Positions 3,075-37,791 of a stretch of 40,883 nucleotides of DNA are shown piece by piece; the first letter of the stretch is position 1, and each line of letters starts with the position of its first letter. The notes beneath the pieces were generated by a model that searched no databases, was not told where the DNA came from, and worked only from the letters and a program-made list of their open reading frames with translations. Origin of the DNA: a virus; the UHGV virus genome UHGV-0848487; one strand, written 5' to 3'. Made by a program: the position numbers and the translations under genes.

Positions 3075-3100
3075 AAAAAAGGGCCGAAGCCCCTTTGTTT
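3075..3100 (-). terminator. intrinsic terminator-like hairpin after major capsid gene
   Basis: Minus strand reads GGGGC-ttcg-GCCC followed by TTTTTT directly after capsid stop codon. Confidence 0.4.
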
Positions 3101-3115
3101 TTACTACTAACCGTG

Positions 3116-4120
3116 TTACCGGTCTGCGTCGGCGATTGCCAGAGTACCGAGGGTGTGCTTGTTCTCGGCAACAGCTTTGCCCCAGTTAGTCGCGGTGAAC
3201 AGTTCTGCGTCCAGCGGAGATTTACCGCCGTTGGTAACGTCCCAGCTGTAGCCTTTCAGTTTCAGGCCGAAGCTGTAGTCCGCCTGCCAGGTGGTCTGGA
3301 TGCGGGTGTTACCGTTGCTGGTGTCAATGTTGCTGATAATGTCAGAAGCATTATCAACGATGATGCCGTTCGCAACTACGGACAGAACCTTAGTCTTGTT
3401 CGGGCTGCCAGCTTCGTACGGAACCTTAGTCTTGTTCGGGCTGCCAGCTTCGTACAGCGCAGGGATGTCGGAAATTACGTAACGCTTGCCGAGAACATCG
3501 ACAACCATAACGTTGCCAGCAACGAACAACTGGTTTGCGTTGGTCAGCGCTTTGTCCACCAGAGTGTGGTAGGCCGCGCCGGTCATGATGTCAGTGACCA
3601 ACAACTGAGACTGGTCGCCGAATTTAGCGTGGCTGTTGTTCAGCACGTTCAGGGACAAGCCAGCGGTCGCGGATACATCGTTAACCAGTGCAGTCTGACC
3701 GGATACCGCGGCAACGGCGGCACCAACAGCGGTGTTAAGCTGGTCAGCTAACAGTGCGTCAGAGAACCCTTCGGAGATAGCACGAATCGCGCTCGCCGGG
3801 TCTTCGTTCAGCCAGGTCATTTGCGCAGGCTCGAACAGTACCGGTCCGAAGCCGCCAGCGACTTTAACGCCTACATGCTCGCCCTGAGTCAGCGCGGTAG
3901 CTGCCTGAGACGCGATAGTGGCGTAACGGTCAACGCGGCGTTTAGCGGAGGCAATCTGGTTAAAGAAAGACTCACGGGAGAAGTCACCGCGCCATGAAGC
4001 GGTAGACAGTACAATTGCGCCACCGGAGGCTGCGTTAAACTGGTCAGTTTTCTGGCCAAGCAGTTCGATAGTGGTACCGACGATATCGTCGTTATAAACC
4101 TTCATATCTGACAGAGACAT
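3116..4120 (-). CDS. major capsid protein
   Basis: 334 aa ORF following scaffold-like gene; followed by terminator; position in head module; contains 36-bp in-frame tandem duplication. Confidence 0.6.
   Translation of the reverse strand: MSLSDMKVYNDDIVGTTIELLGQKTDQFNAASGGAIVLSTASWRGDFSRESFFNQIASAKRRVDRYATIASQAATALTQGEHVGVKVAGGFGPVLFEPAQMTWLNEDPASAIRAISEGFSDALLADQLNTAVGAAVAAVSGQTALVNDVSATAGLSLNVLNNSHAKFGDQSQLLVTDIMTGAAYHTLVDKALTNANQLFVAGNVMVVDVLGKRYVISDIPALYEAGSPNKTKVPYEAGSPNKTKVLSVVANGIIVDNASDIISNIDTSNGNTRIQTTWQADYSFGLKLKGYSWDVTNGGKSPLDAELFTATNWGKAVAENKHTLGTLAIADADR
3384..3455. repeat. 36-bp tandem direct duplication (2 copies, 35/36 identical) inside capsid gene
   Basis: gaaccttagtcttgttcgggctgccagcttcgtacg repeated head-to-tail; encodes duplicated peptide YEAGSPNKTKVP. 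Confidence 0.9.
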
Positions 4121-4126
4121 ATTCTG

Positions 4127-4753
4127 TTATCCTCGTTTGCCGTATTTGGCGTTAAGTTTTTGCTGGATTACGTCCGCACCACCGGCCCCGCCAGTAGAAT
4201 TTTTGTTACCGGAAGCCCCGCCGCCGGTTGCTGCATCTGCTTTAATCAGATGCGAAAATGCTTTGTGCTCACGCAGATACTTTTTAAATTGCTCTGCGTC
4301 GGTGGTGATGACATTACCATCTGCACCTGTGAACTTGGTCACAACGTCATCGCCGTCAAATTCGGTCTTGACCATCATAGCGATAATATCCGCTGCGCTC
4401 TCATCAATCAACATTCCAGACAACTGGCTGATAACTGATTTACGTTCCGCGCCGAGGATACGCTCAGCCATTTTGCTAATCTTACCGTCTTTCTCGGCGA
4501 GTACTGGCTCATACTGACTGCGCAACGTTTTCTCGAATGCCTCAAGTTCGCCGTTCTGTTTTGCGCGTTCCTGTTCGGCTTTCAGCTTCGCATCTGCGGC
4601 TTCTTTCGCGGCAGCGGCGGCAGCTTTCTTTTCAGACAAGAGCTTCTCGTTGTTAGCTTTAAGACCGGATACCAGCGCGTCAACTTCTTCTTTGGTAAAC
4701 GTGGTCTTAGTCTCTTGTTGTTCGATAGTTTCGTCTTTCACTTCTTCGCTCAT
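4127..4753 (-). CDS. capsid scaffolding protein
   Basis: Acidic, Ala/Lys/Glu-rich coiled-coil protein directly upstream of capsid gene; preferred start ATG 4753 (MSEEVKDET) after GGGGA. Confidence 0.55.
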   Translation of the reverse strand: MSEEVKDETIEQQETKTTFTKEEVDALVSGLKANNEKLLSEKKAAAAAAKEAADAKLKAEQERAKQNGELEAFEKTLRSQYEPVLAEKDGKISKMAERILGAERKSVISQLSGMLIDESAADIIAMMVKTEFDGDDVVTKFTGADGNVITTDAEQFKKYLREHKAFSHLIKADAATGGGASGNKNSTGGAGGADVIQQKLNAKYGKRG

Positions 4754-4775
4754 CAGTATGTCCCCTGGACGTTGG

Positions 4776-4794
4776 AATCCGGGCCACCCGGATT
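4776..4794 (-). promoter_or_regulatory. perfect 8-bp stem / 3-nt loop hairpin in scaffold 5' leader
   Basis: AATCCGGG-cca-CCCGGATT about 20 nt upstream of scaffold ATG; no U-tract. Confidence 0.35.
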
Positions 4795-4832
4795 TACATG
4801 TCAAGAATAAATTATTCCAACATACAAGGCAA

Positions 4833-5096
4833 CTATTCCAGAATATTCCTCACGTAATCCTGCAACATGAACACTTTAAGTCTCAGTTGCCGTACACATT
4901 CTGCGTTCTGGACGTCAATAGCTAAATCCTCGTCCGCGTCGTTACTTGGCAGTGCCAGTTTGCACGGCGGCTGCATCATCGTCGTATCCGGGGATGGAAT
5001 TGGCGTTTGCGACGGCGCGGGACTTGAGTTGCACGCGCTCAGGGTCAAAAGTGCACACGCTGCGGCCAGGCGTTTTAATGTACTTAACGACTTCAC
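4833..5096 (-). CDS. Rz1: o-spanin (Rz1-like outer membrane lipoprotein)
   Basis: GTG start inside Rz in another frame; signal peptide with lipobox LSAC (MKSLSTLKRLAAACALLTLSAC); Pro-rich mature region; overlaps and extends beyond Rz 3' end. Confidence 0.7.
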   Translation of the reverse strand: MKSLSTLKRLAAACALLTLSACNSSPAPSQTPIPSPDTTMMQPPCKLALPSNDADEDLAIDVQNAECVRQLRLKVFMLQDYVRNILE

Positions 5097-5328
5097 GGGT
5101 GATTACCTCTGATTTCGTCTTGCCTTCGTTATCAGCGGCGGCGGCCTTCGATTCATCCTGCTGCTGCCGTTGTGTTTTCTTAGCTAACTCAGCCTGTGCT
5201 TTCTGCTGTTGCTGCGAAACGAGATTCTCCCGGCCTCCGTTCCAGCCGCTGCGATACTGGTAGATGCCGTGTGCGTAAGCCAGGATGATGAAACATGCCC
5301 CCGCTACGACAGTTGCTTTAAGATTCAT
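4942..5328 (-). CDS. Rz: i-spanin (Rz-like)
   Basis: 128 aa; N-terminal transmembrane segment, Gln/Ala/Lys-rich coiled-coil, overlapping lipoprotein gene in alternate frame; AAAGGGGAAAC RBS. Confidence 0.7.
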   Translation of the reverse strand: MNLKATVVAGACFIILAYAHGIYQYRSGWNGGRENLVSQQQQKAQAELAKKTQRQQQDESKAAAADNEGKTKSEVITREVVKYIKTPGRSVCTFDPERVQLKSRAVANANSIPGYDDDAAAVQTGTAK

Positions 5329-5352
5329 GTTTCCCCTTTCTCGATAAGTAAA

Positions 5353-5372
5353 GCCCCGCCTTAAAGCGGGGC
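5353..5372 (-). terminator. hairpin GCCCCGC-loop-GCGGGGC followed by TTTAC, upstream of Rz
   Basis: Stem-loop read on minus strand; near-identical element in opposite orientation at 16780..16802. Confidence 0.4.
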
Positions 5373-5648
5373 GCTAGTCCTTATCATTTAAACATAGAAA
5401 CGGCGTAATCTCAGTAAACCAGTTACTTTTTACACAAGCAATAGAGTATGGCCCTTCCGAACGCGTCAGCGTAACTACACTCAGGACTTACGTCCCGCTC
5501 CGTTACCTGCCCGCGCCGCGGTCGCTTGTTCATACTTCACAAGCTCAGGTGGAGCTTAGCACATTTTTGGTGAAAAGTCAACTATTCGAATAGTTTATTC
5601 CAACATTTACAATTGAGTGGAATGACTGGAATAATCACAGGCACTAAA

Positions 5649-5666
5649 AAGCCCCTTTCGGGGCTT
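5649..5666. terminator. intrinsic terminator hairpin (bidirectional-looking)
   Basis: AAGCCCC-tttc-GGGGCTT flanked by A5 on plus side (U-tract on minus strand) just downstream of the 153-aa gene. Confidence 0.6.
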
Positions 5667-5670
5667 CAGT

Positions 5671-6132
5671 TTATTCTTGCTTAGTAACCTTCGCTGCTTT
5701 ACTTACGGCCTCTATACCATCGGCATCAGTGACTTTAACGAAGTATTCACCAACTGCGTTAACCGTCAGAGACAGAGCCTCTTCCGGGGCGTTTACCACT
5801 TCCTTCCCGTCTTTGTACCAGGTCAGCGCATATGGTGCTTTGCCCGCCTTAACTTCGACAGCGATATTTGCGCTGCCGTCTGCCAGTTCAGCGTCCTGCG
5901 GTTGTACGGAGAAATACACATCACCAGCATCCGCCAGGTACTGAATCTCATAAAGCATACCTGCCGCTGGCAGCGCAATACCGGTCTTGTCCGCAAACGG
6001 CATATCGTCCACTGGTGTTCCGAGTACACTTTCGTCTTCAATAAACACCACGTTCTCGCCAGAGCCAGACACGCGGGCGTACTGGACTACGCGACGAGAC
6101 GGTACGTCAGTTACTTTGAAAAAGCCCATCAT
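5671..6132 (-). CDS. Ig-like domain head protein (decoration-like, putative)
   Basis: 153 aa; C-terminal segment YALTWYKDGKEV...GEYFVKVTDADG resembles Ig-like fold signature; ATGA overlap with upstream MuF-like gene. Confidence 0.3.
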   Translation of the reverse strand: MMGFFKVTDVPSRRVVQYARVSGSGENVVFIEDESVLGTPVDDMPFADKTGIALPAAGMLYEIQYLADAGDVYFSVQPQDAELADGSANIAVEVKAGKAPYALTWYKDGKEVVNAPEEALSLTVNAVGEYFVKVTDADGIEAVSKAAKVTKQE

Positions 6133-8749: not shown

Positions 8750-10000
8750 TTAAAGTGCGAAAGTCACCGGGATGTTGATTACTGGTTTAACCACCGGCAT
8801 CTCGTAAACTACAGGATAGCCGAGAGCATCCGCCATATGGTCAATGACGCCGTCTTTAGCTGGCTCTCCGTTATCATCGTATGCCTGCTGCTCCAGCGTC
8901 TTCGCTATCTCGGGGCATAAGTGGTCATTAACCCACAGCTTACCTTTTTCCAGTGCGGTATTCACGGCTAAAACACGGTCTTTAACCGGAGGGTTGGCGG
9001 ATTTAGCGCGAACATCGAAACCGGCCTGCTGGAGTAACGCAATATCTGAGATTGACGCCGAGTTGGTCTTGCGGTTCTTGCCGCTGGCGTCCGGGTAAAC
9101 GACTATGCGGTGGCCCTGCGACTTCCACTTCTCAGTAATTACACGCACGGTGTCCGGCGTATCAAACAGACCTTTCAGTTCTGCCACCGCGTGCCAGCCG
9201 TCTTTACGTTGCACATACACGGCGCTGGCGTTCTTCGTAACGTTGAAGTCCTGCCCGATGTACAGTGTATCGCCCGGTTGAATTGTCTCTTTGCTGCGGT
9301 GCTTGCGACGGTCATACGCATAATACACGCTGCCGGATGTCAGGTTAACGAACTCACCGTTCAGGTACGCGTTAATCAGTTGCGCGGGGTAAGTCTCGGT
9401 CAGTGAGCTAATGTAGTCAGGCGGCAGGAATCGCGCGTTCTCGTGTGTAGAAGCCTGCACCATCGAGTAACTCGGCGTCGGGTTCTCTTTGAACTTGGCG
9501 TAGACGAACTTGAACCCTTCCGGTGTCGTGGTGACAGAGATGTGGTTAGTTACGCCGGGGATAACCAGACGCATACGGGCGACTATTTTGTTCCACGCCA
9601 GCTCAGCTTTCTCACGGCTCAATACATCAAGCTCATCCACGACCGCAGCAGCGATTTTGAAGCCGACTATCGAGCCTGGGTTATCCATAGAACGGCAGAT
9701 AACTGTACCTAGCACCGTCTTACCGCGAGTAACCACGACTTCTTTGTCGCCAGATTTAACCAGCACATCGAGGCCGAGCAGGTTAGCGGCTTCCTCAAAT
9801 GTCGGGTAGAAGATGTCACGGATAGCCGGGTATGTCGGGCCGAAGTAACCCAGGCGCGTACCTGGATGCTTGAGCATAAACGTAAGCAGGTCAAGGCAGC
9901 CAACAAATGTCTTTCCGCTGCCGAAGCCGCCGACATAGGCTTTGTATTTGTTATCGCAATTCAGGAACAGTGCCTGCGGTGCGGATAGCTGAATACTCAT
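8750..10000 (-). CDS. terminase large subunit
   Basis: Walker A GGFGSGKT, Walker B-like AAAVVDE, C-terminal nuclease-like acidic motifs; 416 aa. Confidence 0.9.
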   Translation of the reverse strand: MSIQLSAPQALFLNCDNKYKAYVGGFGSGKTFVGCLDLLTFMLKHPGTRLGYFGPTYPAIRDIFYPTFEEAANLLGLDVLVKSGDKEVVVTRGKTVLGTVICRSMDNPGSIVGFKIAAAVVDELDVLSREKAELAWNKIVARMRLVIPGVTNHISVTTTPEGFKFVYAKFKENPTPSYSMVQASTHENARFLPPDYISSLTETYPAQLINAYLNGEFVNLTSGSVYYAYDRRKHRSKETIQPGDTLYIGQDFNVTKNASAVYVQRKDGWHAVAELKGLFDTPDTVRVITEKWKSQGHRIVVYPDASGKNRKTNSASISDIALLQQAGFDVRAKSANPPVKDRVLAVNTALEKGKLWVNDHLCPEIAKTLEQQAYDDNGEPAKDGVIDHMADALGYPVVYEMPVVKPVINIPVTFAL

Positions 10001-10542
10001 TCCTCTACCTCACCCATATTCGTTGTTACAATTTTACCTACAGGCTCTGCAACACTAAAAATAATCTCAGTCGGTGCTGTTTCTTCTGTGGACTCAACCG
10101 GTTTCTCTTTGCTGAGGCCCAGTTTAGCTGCGGCGAACGTAGCAGAGATGCCCGCGGCCCCTGTCTCAGTGAAATATGCCTCTTCCAGCGCCTGTGCTGT
10201 TTCATAGGCTTCTGCAAATGCGGGAATCTCACACAGCCACAGCTTAATAATCGGGATAGTTACGCCGATGTGTAAGGCGAAGCGGGCCAGTGACGGGGGT
10301 TTATCCTGAATCAGCGGGCGTTCGTCACCCTTAGACGTAGGCACGAGTTCCCACGACGTGCGGTCGAAGAACTCGATTAGCGCGTCGCAATAATCCGGGT
10401 CCCACAGCGCGGCGGAATTACGGGATGATTGATAAAGGCTCTGTTTACCGCGCGGTCGTTTACGGCGGCGGTTTGCACTAACAGCTTCTTCATGTGCAGC
10501 TTGCACCACCTCTGGCGATGGCTGCTTGAGTTTCAGCTTCAT
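9997..10542 (-). CDS. terminase small subunit (putative)
   Basis: ATGA overlap with terminase large subunit; preferred start ATG 10542 (MKLKLKQ) after AAGGGGA; basic N-terminal region. Confidence 0.45.
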   Translation of the reverse strand: MKLKLKQPSPEVVQAAHEEAVSANRRRKRPRGKQSLYQSSRNSAALWDPDYCDALIEFFDRTSWELVPTSKGDERPLIQDKPPSLARFALHIGVTIPIIKLWLCEIPAFAEAYETAQALEEAYFTETGAAGISATFAAAKLGLSKEKPVESTEETAPTEIIFSVAEPVGKIVTTNMGEVEE

Positions 10543-10564
10543 AGAATCCCCTTGCATATGCGTC

Positions 10565-15052: not shown

Positions 15053-15212
15053 CAGCTTCACCCCTTTTCTCATCCACCCCGACTAGCAGCGATTTAGTGT
15101 CGCCGCCACACACCGAAGTGCTACTAATTATTTCGTAAGCGTCTACCAGTTCGCCTAAAGTCCAGCTACCGTACCAGCCCACCTCTGTCTCTCCTCTCGC
15201 TTGTGTAAATGA

Positions 15213-15241
15213 ATAGTAGCCTATTCTATCTTAGTGTGCAA
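15213..15241 (-). promoter_or_regulatory. sigma70-like promoter TTGCAC-N17-TACTAT (minus strand) overlapping GAATAG palindrome
   Basis: Minus strand TTGCACactaagatagaataggcTACTATtcattta; near-identical to promoters at 16507..16535 and 37733..37761. Confidence 0.5.
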
Positions 15242-15248
15242 GTAAATT

Positions 15249-15905: not shown

Positions 15906-16090
15906 ACCAGAACCTCACATTCATCCCGATACGCGAACAATAACGACCCTTTGTACTCAATCATAAAACCATAATGGTTGATGCTGAACGCCGGAAAAAC
16001 ATCACCTACCGAGATACCGAAATCTATAAGCCTGCGGTCAGTTATACGGACAAGCCTGCGGTCAGTTATACGGATTCGCATTAACGGCAA
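15902..16090 (-). CDS. hypothetical protein (62 aa) containing a 24-bp in-frame tandem duplication
   Basis: ORF track; peptide RITDRRLV duplicated. Confidence 0.4.
   Translation of the reverse strand: MPLMRIRITDRRLVRITDRRLIDFGISVGDVFPAFSINHYGFMIEYKGSLLFAYRDECEVLV
16028..16075. repeat. 24-bp tandem direct duplication (2 copies, 23/24 identical)
   Basis: aagcctgcggtcagttatacgga repeated head-to-tail. Confidence 0.9.
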
Positions 16091-16472: not shown

Positions 16473-16506
16473 AACCCTCACTCCTCTGTCTCGTTCCGAT
16501 AAGTGA

Positions 16507-16535
16507 ATAGTATCCTATTATGTTGGGGCGTGCAA
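16507..16535 (-). promoter_or_regulatory. sigma70-like promoter TTGCAC-N17-TACTAT (minus strand) overlapping GAATAG palindrome
   Basis: Minus strand TTGCACgccccaacataataggaTACTATtcactta, about 25 nt upstream of the 16472 gene. Confidence 0.5.
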
Positions 16536-16594
16536 GAGATTAGTTACGTTGCCGTTGTGATTCTTTCGTTTCTTAAAGGAGTACGCAACGCAGT

Positions 16595-16614
16595 GGGTGG
16601 GCGTTAGCCCACCC
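16595..16614. promoter_or_regulatory. GC-rich 8-bp hairpin GGGTGGGC-gtta-GCCCACCC in early intergenic region
   Basis: Perfect stem, no U-tract on either strand. Confidence 0.3.
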
Positions 16615-16779
16615 CAGCGGAGTGAAGTACTCTCTACCTCACTCACGGCAACTATAGAAACTTTTAATTATCAGTGACTTATGAAGGAGGGTAAAATTTA
16701 AATAGACGGGGGCTTTCTTGCCACTTGCTGTTACTGGGATGAAACTTAGATACTAACGTTACCAAGAGTACTGTTTAGC

Positions 16780-16802
16780 GCCCCGCTTTAGGGCGGGGCT
16801 TT
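16780..16802 (+). terminator. hairpin GCCCCGC-loop-GCGGGGC followed by TTTA
   Basis: Near-identical to the element at 5353..5372 but in opposite orientation. Confidence 0.35.
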
Positions 16803-16956
16803 AAGTACCCGAGACTTAAGAATGATGTTTCTAAGTAATTCTGAATTAAGGTCCTTCGATACATTGATTTTACAGCTACATTTTATTTTGTCAATAGGTT
16901 GTGTTTGGCTATTGTAGGTGTTATAGTTGTTTCACTTGATAAAGAGGGCACGTAAA

Positions 16957-19998: not shown

Positions 19999-20027
19999 TT
20001 GATATGTGAATAGTACCATATTAATTA
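19999..20027 (+). promoter_or_regulatory. candidate promoter TTGATA-N17-TAATTA overlapping the divergent XRE promoter (-10 TACTAT on minus strand at 20010..20015)
   Basis: Contains GTGAATAGTA operator-like motif; face-to-face overlapping promoters. Confidence 0.4.
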
Positions 20028-20042
20028 TTTTAGAAAAGCCCA

Positions 20043-20071
20043 TTGACAAGTGAATAGTTCGCTATTATAGT
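20043..20071 (+). promoter_or_regulatory. strong sigma70-like promoter TTGACA-N17-TATAGT
   Basis: Consensus -35, 17-nt spacer containing GTGAATAGTtcgCTATTA palindrome, -10 TATAGT; 30 nt upstream of the 20103 gene. Confidence 0.6.
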
Positions 20072-20102
20072 TAGCCCATACCAAACGAGAGGAGAATAAA
20101 TA

Positions 20103-22436: not shown

Positions 22437-22465
22437 TTGACACCTGAATAGTTAGCTATTATAGT
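22437..22465 (+). promoter_or_regulatory. sigma70-like promoter TTGACA-N17-TATAGT
   Basis: Near-duplicate of promoter at 20043..20071 including TGAATAGTtagCTATTA palindrome. Confidence 0.6.
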
Positions 22466-22518
22466 TCTAATCACTGGCCGGGCAGTTCCCGGAGTAAACT
22501 GAAAAGCGAGAAATCACG

Positions 22519-25598: not shown

Positions 25599-25875
25599 TG
25601 AGGGGCGCGTGCAGAAATACGCAAAAGAGCGATTCGAGGCCCTGGGAGGCCTCGTACGCAAATTGTCGTACGAAAATAGAGCGGGCGCCCCCGACCTGCT
25701 GGTAATTCTCCCTGGTGGCATCATCTGGTTCGTCGAGGTTAAGAAAGACGAAAACACGAAGCCGGACCCGCACCAGTTACGAGAGCACGAGCGGATGCGT
25801 AAACGTGGTGCAAATGTTTTTGTCGTTGGTTCGTTTAAACAGGTTGACGACCTAATAGCGGGCTATTATAGTTAA
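25588..25875 (+). CDS. VRR-NUC domain nuclease
   Basis: GAPDLLVILPGGIIWFVEVKKDENTKPDPHQ matches VRR-NUC PD-(D/E)XK core; RBS GGGAGGGG. Confidence 0.7.
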   Translation: MSTPEGRVQKYAKERFEALGGLVRKLSYENRAGAPDLLVILPGGIIWFVEVKKDENTKPDPHQLREHERMRKRGANVFVVGSFKQVDDLIAGYYS

Positions 25876-37624: not shown

Positions 37625-37732
37625 TCTTTAATCCTTTGGTTAAGAGGTTACAGGTTAACGATAAATGCGCCAGACGGGAACCACCCGCTTTTCGTGTGCG
37701 ACACTAGGCGCAAAATTATTCTACCACAATAC

Positions 37733-37761
37733 TTGCACACCCCAATATAATAGGGTACTAT
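37733..37761 (+). promoter_or_regulatory. sigma70-like promoter TTGCAC-N17-TACTAT driving plus-strand accessory island
   Basis: TTGCACaccccaatataatagggTACTATtcactta; near-identical to the minus-strand early promoters at 15213..15241 and 16507..16535. Confidence 0.55.
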
Positions 37762-37791
37762 TCACTTACACCAACAATGAAGGGGTTTAAA

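Follow-up and report, generated by a model that had tools for sequence, protein, structure and literature searches.

The 342-nucleotide (nt) gap that precedes the Rz spanin gene in the virus genome UHGV-0848487 (40,883 nt, analysed as a whole and hereafter called the window) carries, on the minus strand, a conserved promoter followed by a structured non-coding RNA; we have high confidence that both are real. They form a previously undescribed RNA family with its own promoter, widespread in the genera Kagunavirus and Jerseyvirus. We propose that the gap supplies the Rz-scaffold-capsid unit with an internal promoter and a non-coding leader RNA, and that the leader probably acts in cis on transcription. 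To this reading as a whole we give a probability of roughly 0.4.

The window is a complete or near-complete genome of a Kagunavirus (Guernseyvirinae, K1G-like), and the gap reaches from the Rz start (5328) to the stop codon of an Ig/Hoc-like gene (5671). Every gene around it lies on the minus strand, as judged from the open reading frames (ORFs) and the annotations of relatives, and the gap must therefore be read on that strand. In this direction the order of elements is terminator, operator-like DNA, sigma70 promoter, structured RNA with hairpins P1 and P2, a 55-nt tail, a GC-rich hairpin and Rz (Table 1). A sequence-only reading of the window had noted a non-coding stretch at 5329-5670 containing a strong terminator (5649-5666), a perfect 16-bp palindrome (5580-5595) and a hairpin (5353-5372), and had suggested a packaging recognition site or an internal late promoter. 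All three elements are present at these positions, the hairpin having 8 bp, seven of them G-C, on the minus strand; no conserved ORF is found, and the sole internal ORF of at least 25 amino acids (aa) is a 36-aa frame. The conserved structured RNA, which is the main content of the gap, had not been foreseen, and the palindrome stressed at that time is the least conserved of its four features.

Promoter and RNA fold in the gap

Comparison with relatives, proposed in the sequence-only reading as a check, shows that no other stretch of the neighbourhood is as well conserved as the gap, and that the gap holds a conserved structured RNA. Across 31 loci with long flanks, positions 5350-5549 are 97.5-98.8% identical, versus 83-92% for the Hoc-like gene and 88-98% for Rz. 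A blastn search with the gap alone retrieves 181 phage records, in almost all of which 5329-5633 is 95-99% identical, and the region as a whole shares 94-99% identity with dozens of E. coli K1 phages and with a group of Salmonella phages. The last 37 nt of the gap, containing the terminator, are variable because many relatives have other genes inserted there.

The promoter hexamers are accompanied by a TG motif and a 17-nt spacing; TG, TAAGCT (TACGCT in Jerseyvirus) and the spacing are invariant in 105 copies, whereas the spacer sequence varies freely. The -35 hexamer is exactly where homology of the A and B paralogues sets in; directly upstream the two diverge. From this comparative evidence we infer promoter activity, so that the suggestion of an internal promoter gains support, with the hexamers, TG and spacing kept in 105 of 105 copies of the putative element. 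Promoter geometry places the predicted transcription start at G5546 or A5545. From the upstream terminator to the Rz start, neither inspection of the sequence nor a scan reveals a further promoter-like site. At this gap the fBC-Eco01 paper and record give software-predicted promoters and a terminator, and nothing more.

Evidence for the RNA comes from covariation. RNAalifold, run on 27 distinct sequences, returned the P1 and P2 hairpins; the covariance model R1 was built from the resulting alignment, and base pairs were counted on model-fitted alignments. R1 detects exactly one copy in the window (5546-5428). Among Kagunavirus sequences 99.4% of the pair cells hold standard pairs, versus 26-44% when the partners are slid by 1-3 columns, and two pairs each take three pair types. 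When Jerseyvirus sequences are added, 98.6% of cells are paired (24-42% in the slid controls), both sides have changed at 12 of the 25 pairs, and the covariation score is reached by none of 500 shuffles. Column pair 40-104 occurs as CG, UA and AU, and column pair 50-92 as UA, AU and GC. Pair 58-85 is G.U in 25, G-C in seven and A-U in four of 36 distinct sequences; such G.U pairs fit only a minus-strand transcript and speak against a cruciform in the DNA as well as against an RNA from the plus strand.

P1 begins 0-2 nt from the predicted start in the A, B and Jerseyvirus copies. The conserved bases are dispersed over stems, internal loops and the base of P2, and no single-stranded seed is apparent. 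In the tail, the blocks AGAUUaCGCCGU and AUGUUUA are common to the Kagunavirus and Jerseyvirus types. The stem of the GC-rich hairpin (5372-5353) also varies in a compensatory manner, from GCCCCGC/GCGGGGC to GCCCAGC/GCTGGGC or GCCCTGC/GCAGGGC in relatives. Two long-range pairings were considered and rejected: the tail CGCCGU pairing with GCGGCG of the core shows no covariation, and neither does a riboswitch-like switch between the core and the terminator hairpin, which varies independently.

Short direct repeats are also seen within the RNA. The 5' arm and loop of P1 (5539-5545) recur just past P2 (5433-5439, minus strand), and the repeat varies in step with P1, reading GCUUGUG in Kagunavirus, GCUUUCAG in Jerseyvirus and CUUGU..GAG..UAUC in the L053 type. 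A further repeat, CUGAG..UUACGC, is present in the tail. By sequence, these P1/tail repeats have the look of a degenerate duplicate of the core.

The RNA does not match known families. The whole window gives no match in Rfam 15 at gathering thresholds, and a permissive Rfam search of 5200-5800 gives only sub-threshold chance hits around terminator hairpins; ARAGORN finds no transfer RNA (tRNA) or transfer-messenger RNA (tmRNA). Full-text literature searches found no description of the RNA.

Homologues are widespread in Guernseyvirinae. A search with the Rz protein gave 507 phage records. The Jerseyvirus-type homologue occurs in 269 records and, taken together with the Kagunavirus type, the element is present in about 450 of the 507, in phages of E. 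coli and Salmonella. In Jerseyvirus genomes such as vB_SenS-Ent1, a gap of the same size lies at the same place and matches the covariance model with 45 bits (E about 1e-9, filters off). Its promoter reads TAGACT-17-TGtTACGCT, its P1 is shorter (ACGCU-UUC-AGCGU) with four of the six P1 pairs changed on both sides, and its P2 has the same base (ACCGCGGuGCGG ... CGCaUUCGGAAGGGCC) and a different tip; a related tail and GC-rich hairpin follow before Rz. Pattern scans of IMG/VR, metagenomes and 185,579 genomes recovered about 100 copies, all on Guernseyvirinae-like contigs of ~41-45 kb, with a few chance hits besides.

The RNA can be well conserved beside a diverged Rz. Salmonella phage SETP13 has an Rz protein 65.6% identical to that of the window and gap DNA 96.7% identical, and in 65 Salmonella phages the Kagunavirus-type RNA is 95-98% identical and the Rz protein only 65-78%. 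This suggests that the promoter-RNA module has been exchanged by recombination independently of its neighbours.

Many contigs contain a second copy, a B-type paralogue, which lies in the early divergent region; it faces away from the adjoining promoter of a helix-turn-helix (HTH) regulator and has the orientation of the leftward early genes. Downstream of it come a hairpin lacking a U-tract and then a TTGCAC-17-TACTAT promoter. The two copies within one genome differ in the P1 loop and in the internal loops. An R1 search shows that the window holds no B core; its early divergent region (16540-16700, minus) keeps a B-type tail and a GGGTGGGC...GCCCACCC hairpin, and lacks promoter and core. A twin of the 5372-5353 hairpin, 96% identical, lies at 16776-16803 on the plus strand, where to judge by its sequence it could close a plus-strand transcript of ~270 nt from a promoter at 16496.

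More distant phages have leaders of similar appearance. Pantoea phage AH01 (L100 1205-1500) and Serratia phage Smarc3 (L099 1330-1497) each carry a long, well-folding leader with a GC-rich hairpin just before Rz, the AH01 fold having z = -3.9. Motifs in these leaders resemble the RNA (a GGCC-GUAA-GGCC tip, GUAGCGUUAAGCG and a B-type-like tail), and covariance models R1 and R2 give no match to either leader.

Candidate roles for the RNA

In the arrangement we favour, transcripts of the terminase-portal-Hoc-like genes would stop at the upstream terminator (5666-5646), and the sigma70 promoter (5581-5553) would restart transcription at about G5546. The first ~200 nt would then form a non-coding structured leader, consisting of P1, P2, tail and GC-rich hairpin, and the transcript would continue into Rz/Rz1 and from there in the direction of the genes for scaffold and major capsid protein. 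We see the RNA as the object of selection, and it would act in cis on the polymerase or the transcript carrying it.

Several observations point in this direction. Given the upstream terminator and the lack of another promoter-like site before Rz, Rz/Rz1 would have to be served by read-through from the leader promoter. With P1 at the extreme 5' end in three lineages, and with both paralogues heading operons in the sense orientation, a cis-acting leader is the most economical reading. It is favoured too by the state of the GC-rich hairpin, which is marginal in Kagunavirus, has a degenerate U-tract in Jerseyvirus (UUAGCGUAU) and lacks one altogether in the B copies (ACUGCGUU); we regard the hairpin at 5372-5353 as a weak or partial terminator at best. 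Because the paralogues precede unrelated genes and the conserved bases are dispersed, the target would seem to be the transcription complex and not a particular ribosome-binding site (RBS), and the dispersal suits an RNA with tertiary structure or one that binds a protein or RNA polymerase (RNAP). For action in cis as a leader, considered by itself, we put the chances at about even.

A known precedent is provided by putL and putR of phage HK022, which are cis-acting, RNA-only processive antiterminators: two irregular stem-loops from +3 of a sigma70 transcript allow terminators to be read through with no protein (Hwang et al. 2022, PMC9378689). By analogy, the most likely single role of the promoter-proximal RNA described here would be to make transcription from its promoter resistant to pausing and termination, and this resistance would let it pass both the leader hairpin and the strong terminator that follows the major capsid gene (3078-3096, minus; GGGC-UUCG-GCCC and six U). 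Beyond that terminator an RBS and no promoter precedes the next gene, so that all head-completion genes downstream depend on read-through, and an antitermination activity would have something to act on. A PHROGs scan of 10 plus- and minus-strand ORFs at 12.5-26 kb found an excisionase-like HTH protein, a single-stranded DNA-binding protein, an endonuclease, an endolysin and unknowns, and no Q- or N-like protein. Antitermination specifically is nevertheless a tentative proposal, argued by analogy and somewhat unlikely in our estimate. It is less likely again that the RNAs make up a new family, independent of put, of RNA-only processive antiterminators or anti-pausing elements in virulent Guernseyvirinae, phages that depend wholly on the RNAP of the host, driving late operons (and, in many genomes, early-leftward ones) through internal terminators.

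A number of points count against the proposed leader. The alignments are model-fitted and the sequences related, so the pair changes represent some ten independent compensatory events and not hundreds, and the fold of the single sequence is only modestly below that of shuffles (z = -1.9). The -10 hexamer matches three of six consensus positions, with the critical A and the final T retained, which is why a simple scan does not call the promoter. Only gene-level values are offered by the sole Kagunavirus RNA-seq paper found, the K1B4 study (PMC12645636). The window has a single copy, and the early-region copy is dispensable in many genomes. Models R1 and R2 give no match to the HK022 PL region, which holds putL, with E up to 10 and filters off; without detectable homology, the analogy with put is one of architecture only. 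Finally, the 5372-5353 hairpin passes the terminator scan in the Kagunavirus type, and with the promoter this also fits a free-standing small RNA (sRNA) of ~197 nt.

Such a trans-acting sRNA gene, with a promoter, an RNA from 5546 to about 5350 and a terminator, is a close rival of the cis-acting leader, possible although on balance we doubt it. Regulation of host or phage targets would come about through base pairing or through sequestration of a protein. A conserved promoter belonging to the RNA speaks for this reading, as does, in the Kagunavirus type, a scan-passing hairpin at its end; conservation is extreme in sequence and not in structure alone, including a 12-nt block, UUCGGAAGGGCC, that is near-invariant from Kagunavirus to Jerseyvirus with one or two positions differing in a few copies; and many genomes carry a second copy that has different DNA upstream of it, as if for dosage or timing. 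The poor or absent U-tracts in Jerseyvirus and after the B copies mean, however, that a defined 3' end would need processing, and the P1 and internal loops are not the same in the two copies of one genome. A blastn search of 5,426 complete E. coli genomes with E up to 10 found no similarity or long complementarity. Exact complementarities of 10-11 nt to the phage genome number 36 versus about 16 expected, most of them from the twin terminator, and are thus near chance or due to shared terminators. A search for targets in the phage genome with RNAduplex (60-nt windows) gave only self and terminator hits and is uninformative because unrestricted loops were allowed. An sRNA gene would also leave Rz with no evident promoter.

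Separately, the predicted 5' end of the early-leftward transcript (15199-15209, minus; UUUACACAAGC) is an 11-nt perfect complement to positions 108-118 of the RNA (GCUUGUGUAAA), a match of sequence that may be due to chance.

A less probable role, though still a serious rival, is that of a 5' untranslated leader acting after transcription, by protecting the transcript from RNase E or RppH, by providing a processing site, or by controlling translation of Rz/Rz1 and so the timing of lysis. The position of P1 at the very 5' end in every lineage, the covarying GC-rich hairpin close to the Rz start codon and the constant location of the module before Rz at this locus in both genera would all suit it. 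Yet a stabilising 5' hairpin has no need of a 65-nt P2 with invariant internal loops, and the early genes that follow the B copy are unrelated and are separated from it by another promoter. Nor is a switch between core and hairpin apparent, since the terminator stem varies with no matching changes in the core, and the proposed pairing of tail and core lacks covariation.

Two further explanations we consider very improbable. The long non-coding stretch in the morphogenesis region, with its palindrome and inverted repeats, could be a site acting at the DNA level, either a packaging (pac) recognition site, as the sequence-only reading had suggested, or a replication origin; to our knowledge the pac site of these headful-packaging phages is unmapped, but selection here is on a one-strand RNA fold and no DNA motif, with G.U pairs and compensatory changes that preserve pairing over sequence, the palindrome is expected by chance and lost in Jerseyvirus and the B copies, a duplicate of the module occupies an early intergenic region in many genomes, and the terminase genes (8750-10557) are more than 3 kb away. 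The gap could likewise encode a small protein, the 36-aa ORF at 5423-5533, which 39 of 76 unique copies, all of the commonest sequence type and near-identical to one another, retain intact and which several GenBank records annotate, some as a 'hypothetical protein'; but its ATG is absent in 24 of the 76, including all Jerseyvirus homologues, six copies run into a stop after 9 or 17 codons, two indels in the B copies shift its middle third to another frame and leave the downstream nucleotides conserved, it has no convincing Shine-Dalgarno sequence, and its substitutions track base pairing rather than codon positions.

Upstream DNA and other features of the window

Table 1. Elements of the gap and flanking genes, in minus-strand order
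Feature	Position	Strand	Remarks
Small and large terminase	10557-8750	minus	
Portal	8738-7245	minus	
Head-morphogenesis protein	7208-6132	minus	
Ig/Hoc-like protein	6132-5671	minus	stop at 5671
Intrinsic terminator	5646-5666	minus	stem GCCCC/GGGGC, GAAA loop (5664-5651), UUUUU (5650-5646)
Conserved upstream regulatory DNA	5582-5634		conservation across 181 records reaches 5633
Inverted repeat TTATTCCA/TGGAATAA	5595-5602 and 5627-5634		
GGAATAAACTATTC	5601-5588	minus	within upstream regulatory DNA
16-bp palindrome AACTATTCGAATAGTT	5580-5595		overlaps -35 hexamer by 2 nt
-35 hexamer TTGACT	5581-5576	minus	reads TTGACT, TAGACT or TAGATT in 105/105 copies
Extended -10 TGcTAAGCT	5561-5553	minus	17 nt past -35 hexamer
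Structured RNA core	5546-5428	minus	covariance model R1: 143.3 bits, E = 1e-32
P1, 5'-terminal hairpin	5544-5524	minus	GCUUGU, 9-nt loop GAAGUAUGA, ACAAGC
36-aa ORF	5533-5423	minus	inside RNA; rejected as gene
P2, long irregular hairpin	5521-5457	minus	closing CCG/CGG; internal loops include ACGGAGC / UGAGUGUAGU
P2 tip GGGAC-GUAA-GUCCU	5496-5483	minus	variable, pairs covary
Leader tail, 55 nt	5427-5373	minus	identity 97.5-98.2%
GC-rich hairpin GCCCCGC-UUUAAG-GCGGGGC, then UUUACUUAU	5372-5353	minus	24 nt before Rz ATG
Shine-Dalgarno region AAAGGGGAAAC and ATG of Rz i-spanin	5342-5326	minus	first gene behind leader
Rz/Rz1 spanins	5328-4833	minus	Rz ATG at 5328; relatives annotate spanin
Scaffold and major capsid protein	about 4753-3116	minus	

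The terminator that precedes the module was called on the plus strand by the scan (5649-5666), but its biologically relevant orientation is minus. It begins 5 nt past the stop codon of the Hoc-like ORF (5671-6132), and would thus end the terminase-portal-head morphogenesis-Hoc-like unit.

Of the DNA between terminator and promoter, the Jerseyvirus homologue retains GGAATActtTATTC and ATTATTCCAGTTATTCC but not the 16-bp palindrome. The palindrome is the sole perfect one of this length in the window; shuffled genomes contain a mean of 0.6, with at least one in 45% of shuffles. It is kept in Kagunavirus-type copies at the Rz site and absent from the paralogous copies and the Jerseyvirus homologue, and as one is expected by chance and conserved in one lineage only, we rejected it as a significant feature by itself.

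A second motif in this DNA, GGAATA-N3-TATTC, has seven matches in the window versus 0.53 expected, which overlap between strands and mark four places. Within TGTTGGAATAAnnTATTC it occurs at 5588-5601, before the leader promoter, and at 4805-4818, directly before a TTGACA upstream of the scaffold gene (minus), where the region 4750-4849 is conserved at 98-99%. A match at 2884-2897 resembles an overlap of RBS, stop and start. By sequence, the sites are a candidate operator for a late-gene regulator.

Sigma70-type promoters that closely resemble one another form two families among the early genes. The first is TTGACA-17-TATAGT with an AATAG-N4-CTATT inverted repeat, and the second, TTGCAC-17-TACTAT, reads the opposite way across the same units. 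Early promoter sites lie on the plus strand at 16496-16525, 19999-20028, 20043-20072, 22437-22466 and 25844-25873, with further sites at 15203-15244, 16500-16536 and 37730-37771. The early motif is listed as 'phage RNA polymerase promoters' in the fBC-Eco01 paper; no phage RNAP is found among the genes annotated or scanned in the window.

Two tandem repeats were also noted. A 36-bp tandem duplication (3373-3444) in the major capsid gene keeps the frame and repeats 12 residues (YEAGSPNKTKVP / YEAGSPNKTKVL); the capsid/scaffold allele differs here in most relatives, and only 2-5 of 31 loci align. The early-leftward region has a perfect tandem repeat at 16028-16074, with a 23-nt unit, AAGCCTGCGGTCAGTTATACGGA, in two copies 24 nt apart.

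Relationship to known phage RNAs

HK022 put RNA would be the closest functional analogue of the RNA described here. Like put, it is non-coding and predicted to form two irregular stem-loops within a few nt of a sigma70 start (+3 for putL, +1 to +3 for P1), it heads multi-gene phage operons containing terminators, it is often present as two diverged copies per genome before different operons, and no dedicated phage protein is recognised. The differences are also substantial. There is no homology of sequence or structure by R1 and R2; the element is larger than put (~70 nt), with P1 and P2 spanning about 95 nt followed by a conserved tail of ~100 nt; and one copy precedes the late/lysis genes of a virulent siphovirus, whereas put belongs to early operons of temperate lambdoid phages. 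The leader RNA conserves nothing equivalent to the -10-like pause element of putL.

The arrangement also recalls the pR'-qut-6S RNA-tR' region of lambda, in which a sigma70 promoter gives an untranslated transcript of ~190-200 nt with a hairpin before the first lysis gene. In both cases a sigma70 promoter lies directly upstream of the lysis genes, the untranslated RNA (in the leader, a predicted one) measures ~190-200 nt and has a hairpin at its end, ahead of the first gene, and the late genes need read-through. A Q-like protein is not recognised among the 10 ORFs scanned. We do not know 6S RNA to be a covariation-supported structured RNA, whereas in these phages conservation centres on the RNA, a paralogue of which stands at the head of an early operon. 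A candidate for a promoter-proximal, sigma70-dependent pause element, the -10-like AAGTAT, occurs at +10 to +15 in the window type; the B2 type has no equivalent, and Jerseyvirus has only a weak CAGCGT.

The P4 CI RNA and the c4 RNA of P1/P7 are encoded by temperate elements and pair with complementary repeats of the same transcript. Like them, the RNA is small, structured and either cut from or embedded in a phage operon leader, with short repeats inside the leader (the P1 5' arm and loop recurring after P2). The repeats here are direct, however, and do not complement any conserved loop that is single-stranded; nor was a pairing with a target found that shows covariation.

Among siphoviruses, Kagunavirus and Jerseyvirus rank with those most frequently isolated as agents against E. 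coli and Salmonella in therapy and biocontrol, and we know of essentially no study of their transcription programme. The RNA corrects the annotation of hundreds of GenBank records in which the gap is either blank or filled with a 'hypothetical protein', and it offers a concrete way into the question of how late transcription is split and boosted in phages that use only the host polymerase. If the leader does act in cis, it would be a second, unrelated case of RNA-only control of elongating bacterial RNAP, and would supply a compact, portable expression part (promoter, leader and terminator-proofing) for phage engineering. Were the RNAs to prove a new family of antiterminators, protein-free RNA control of RNAP would be a recurrent phage strategy that extends beyond HK022-like prophages.

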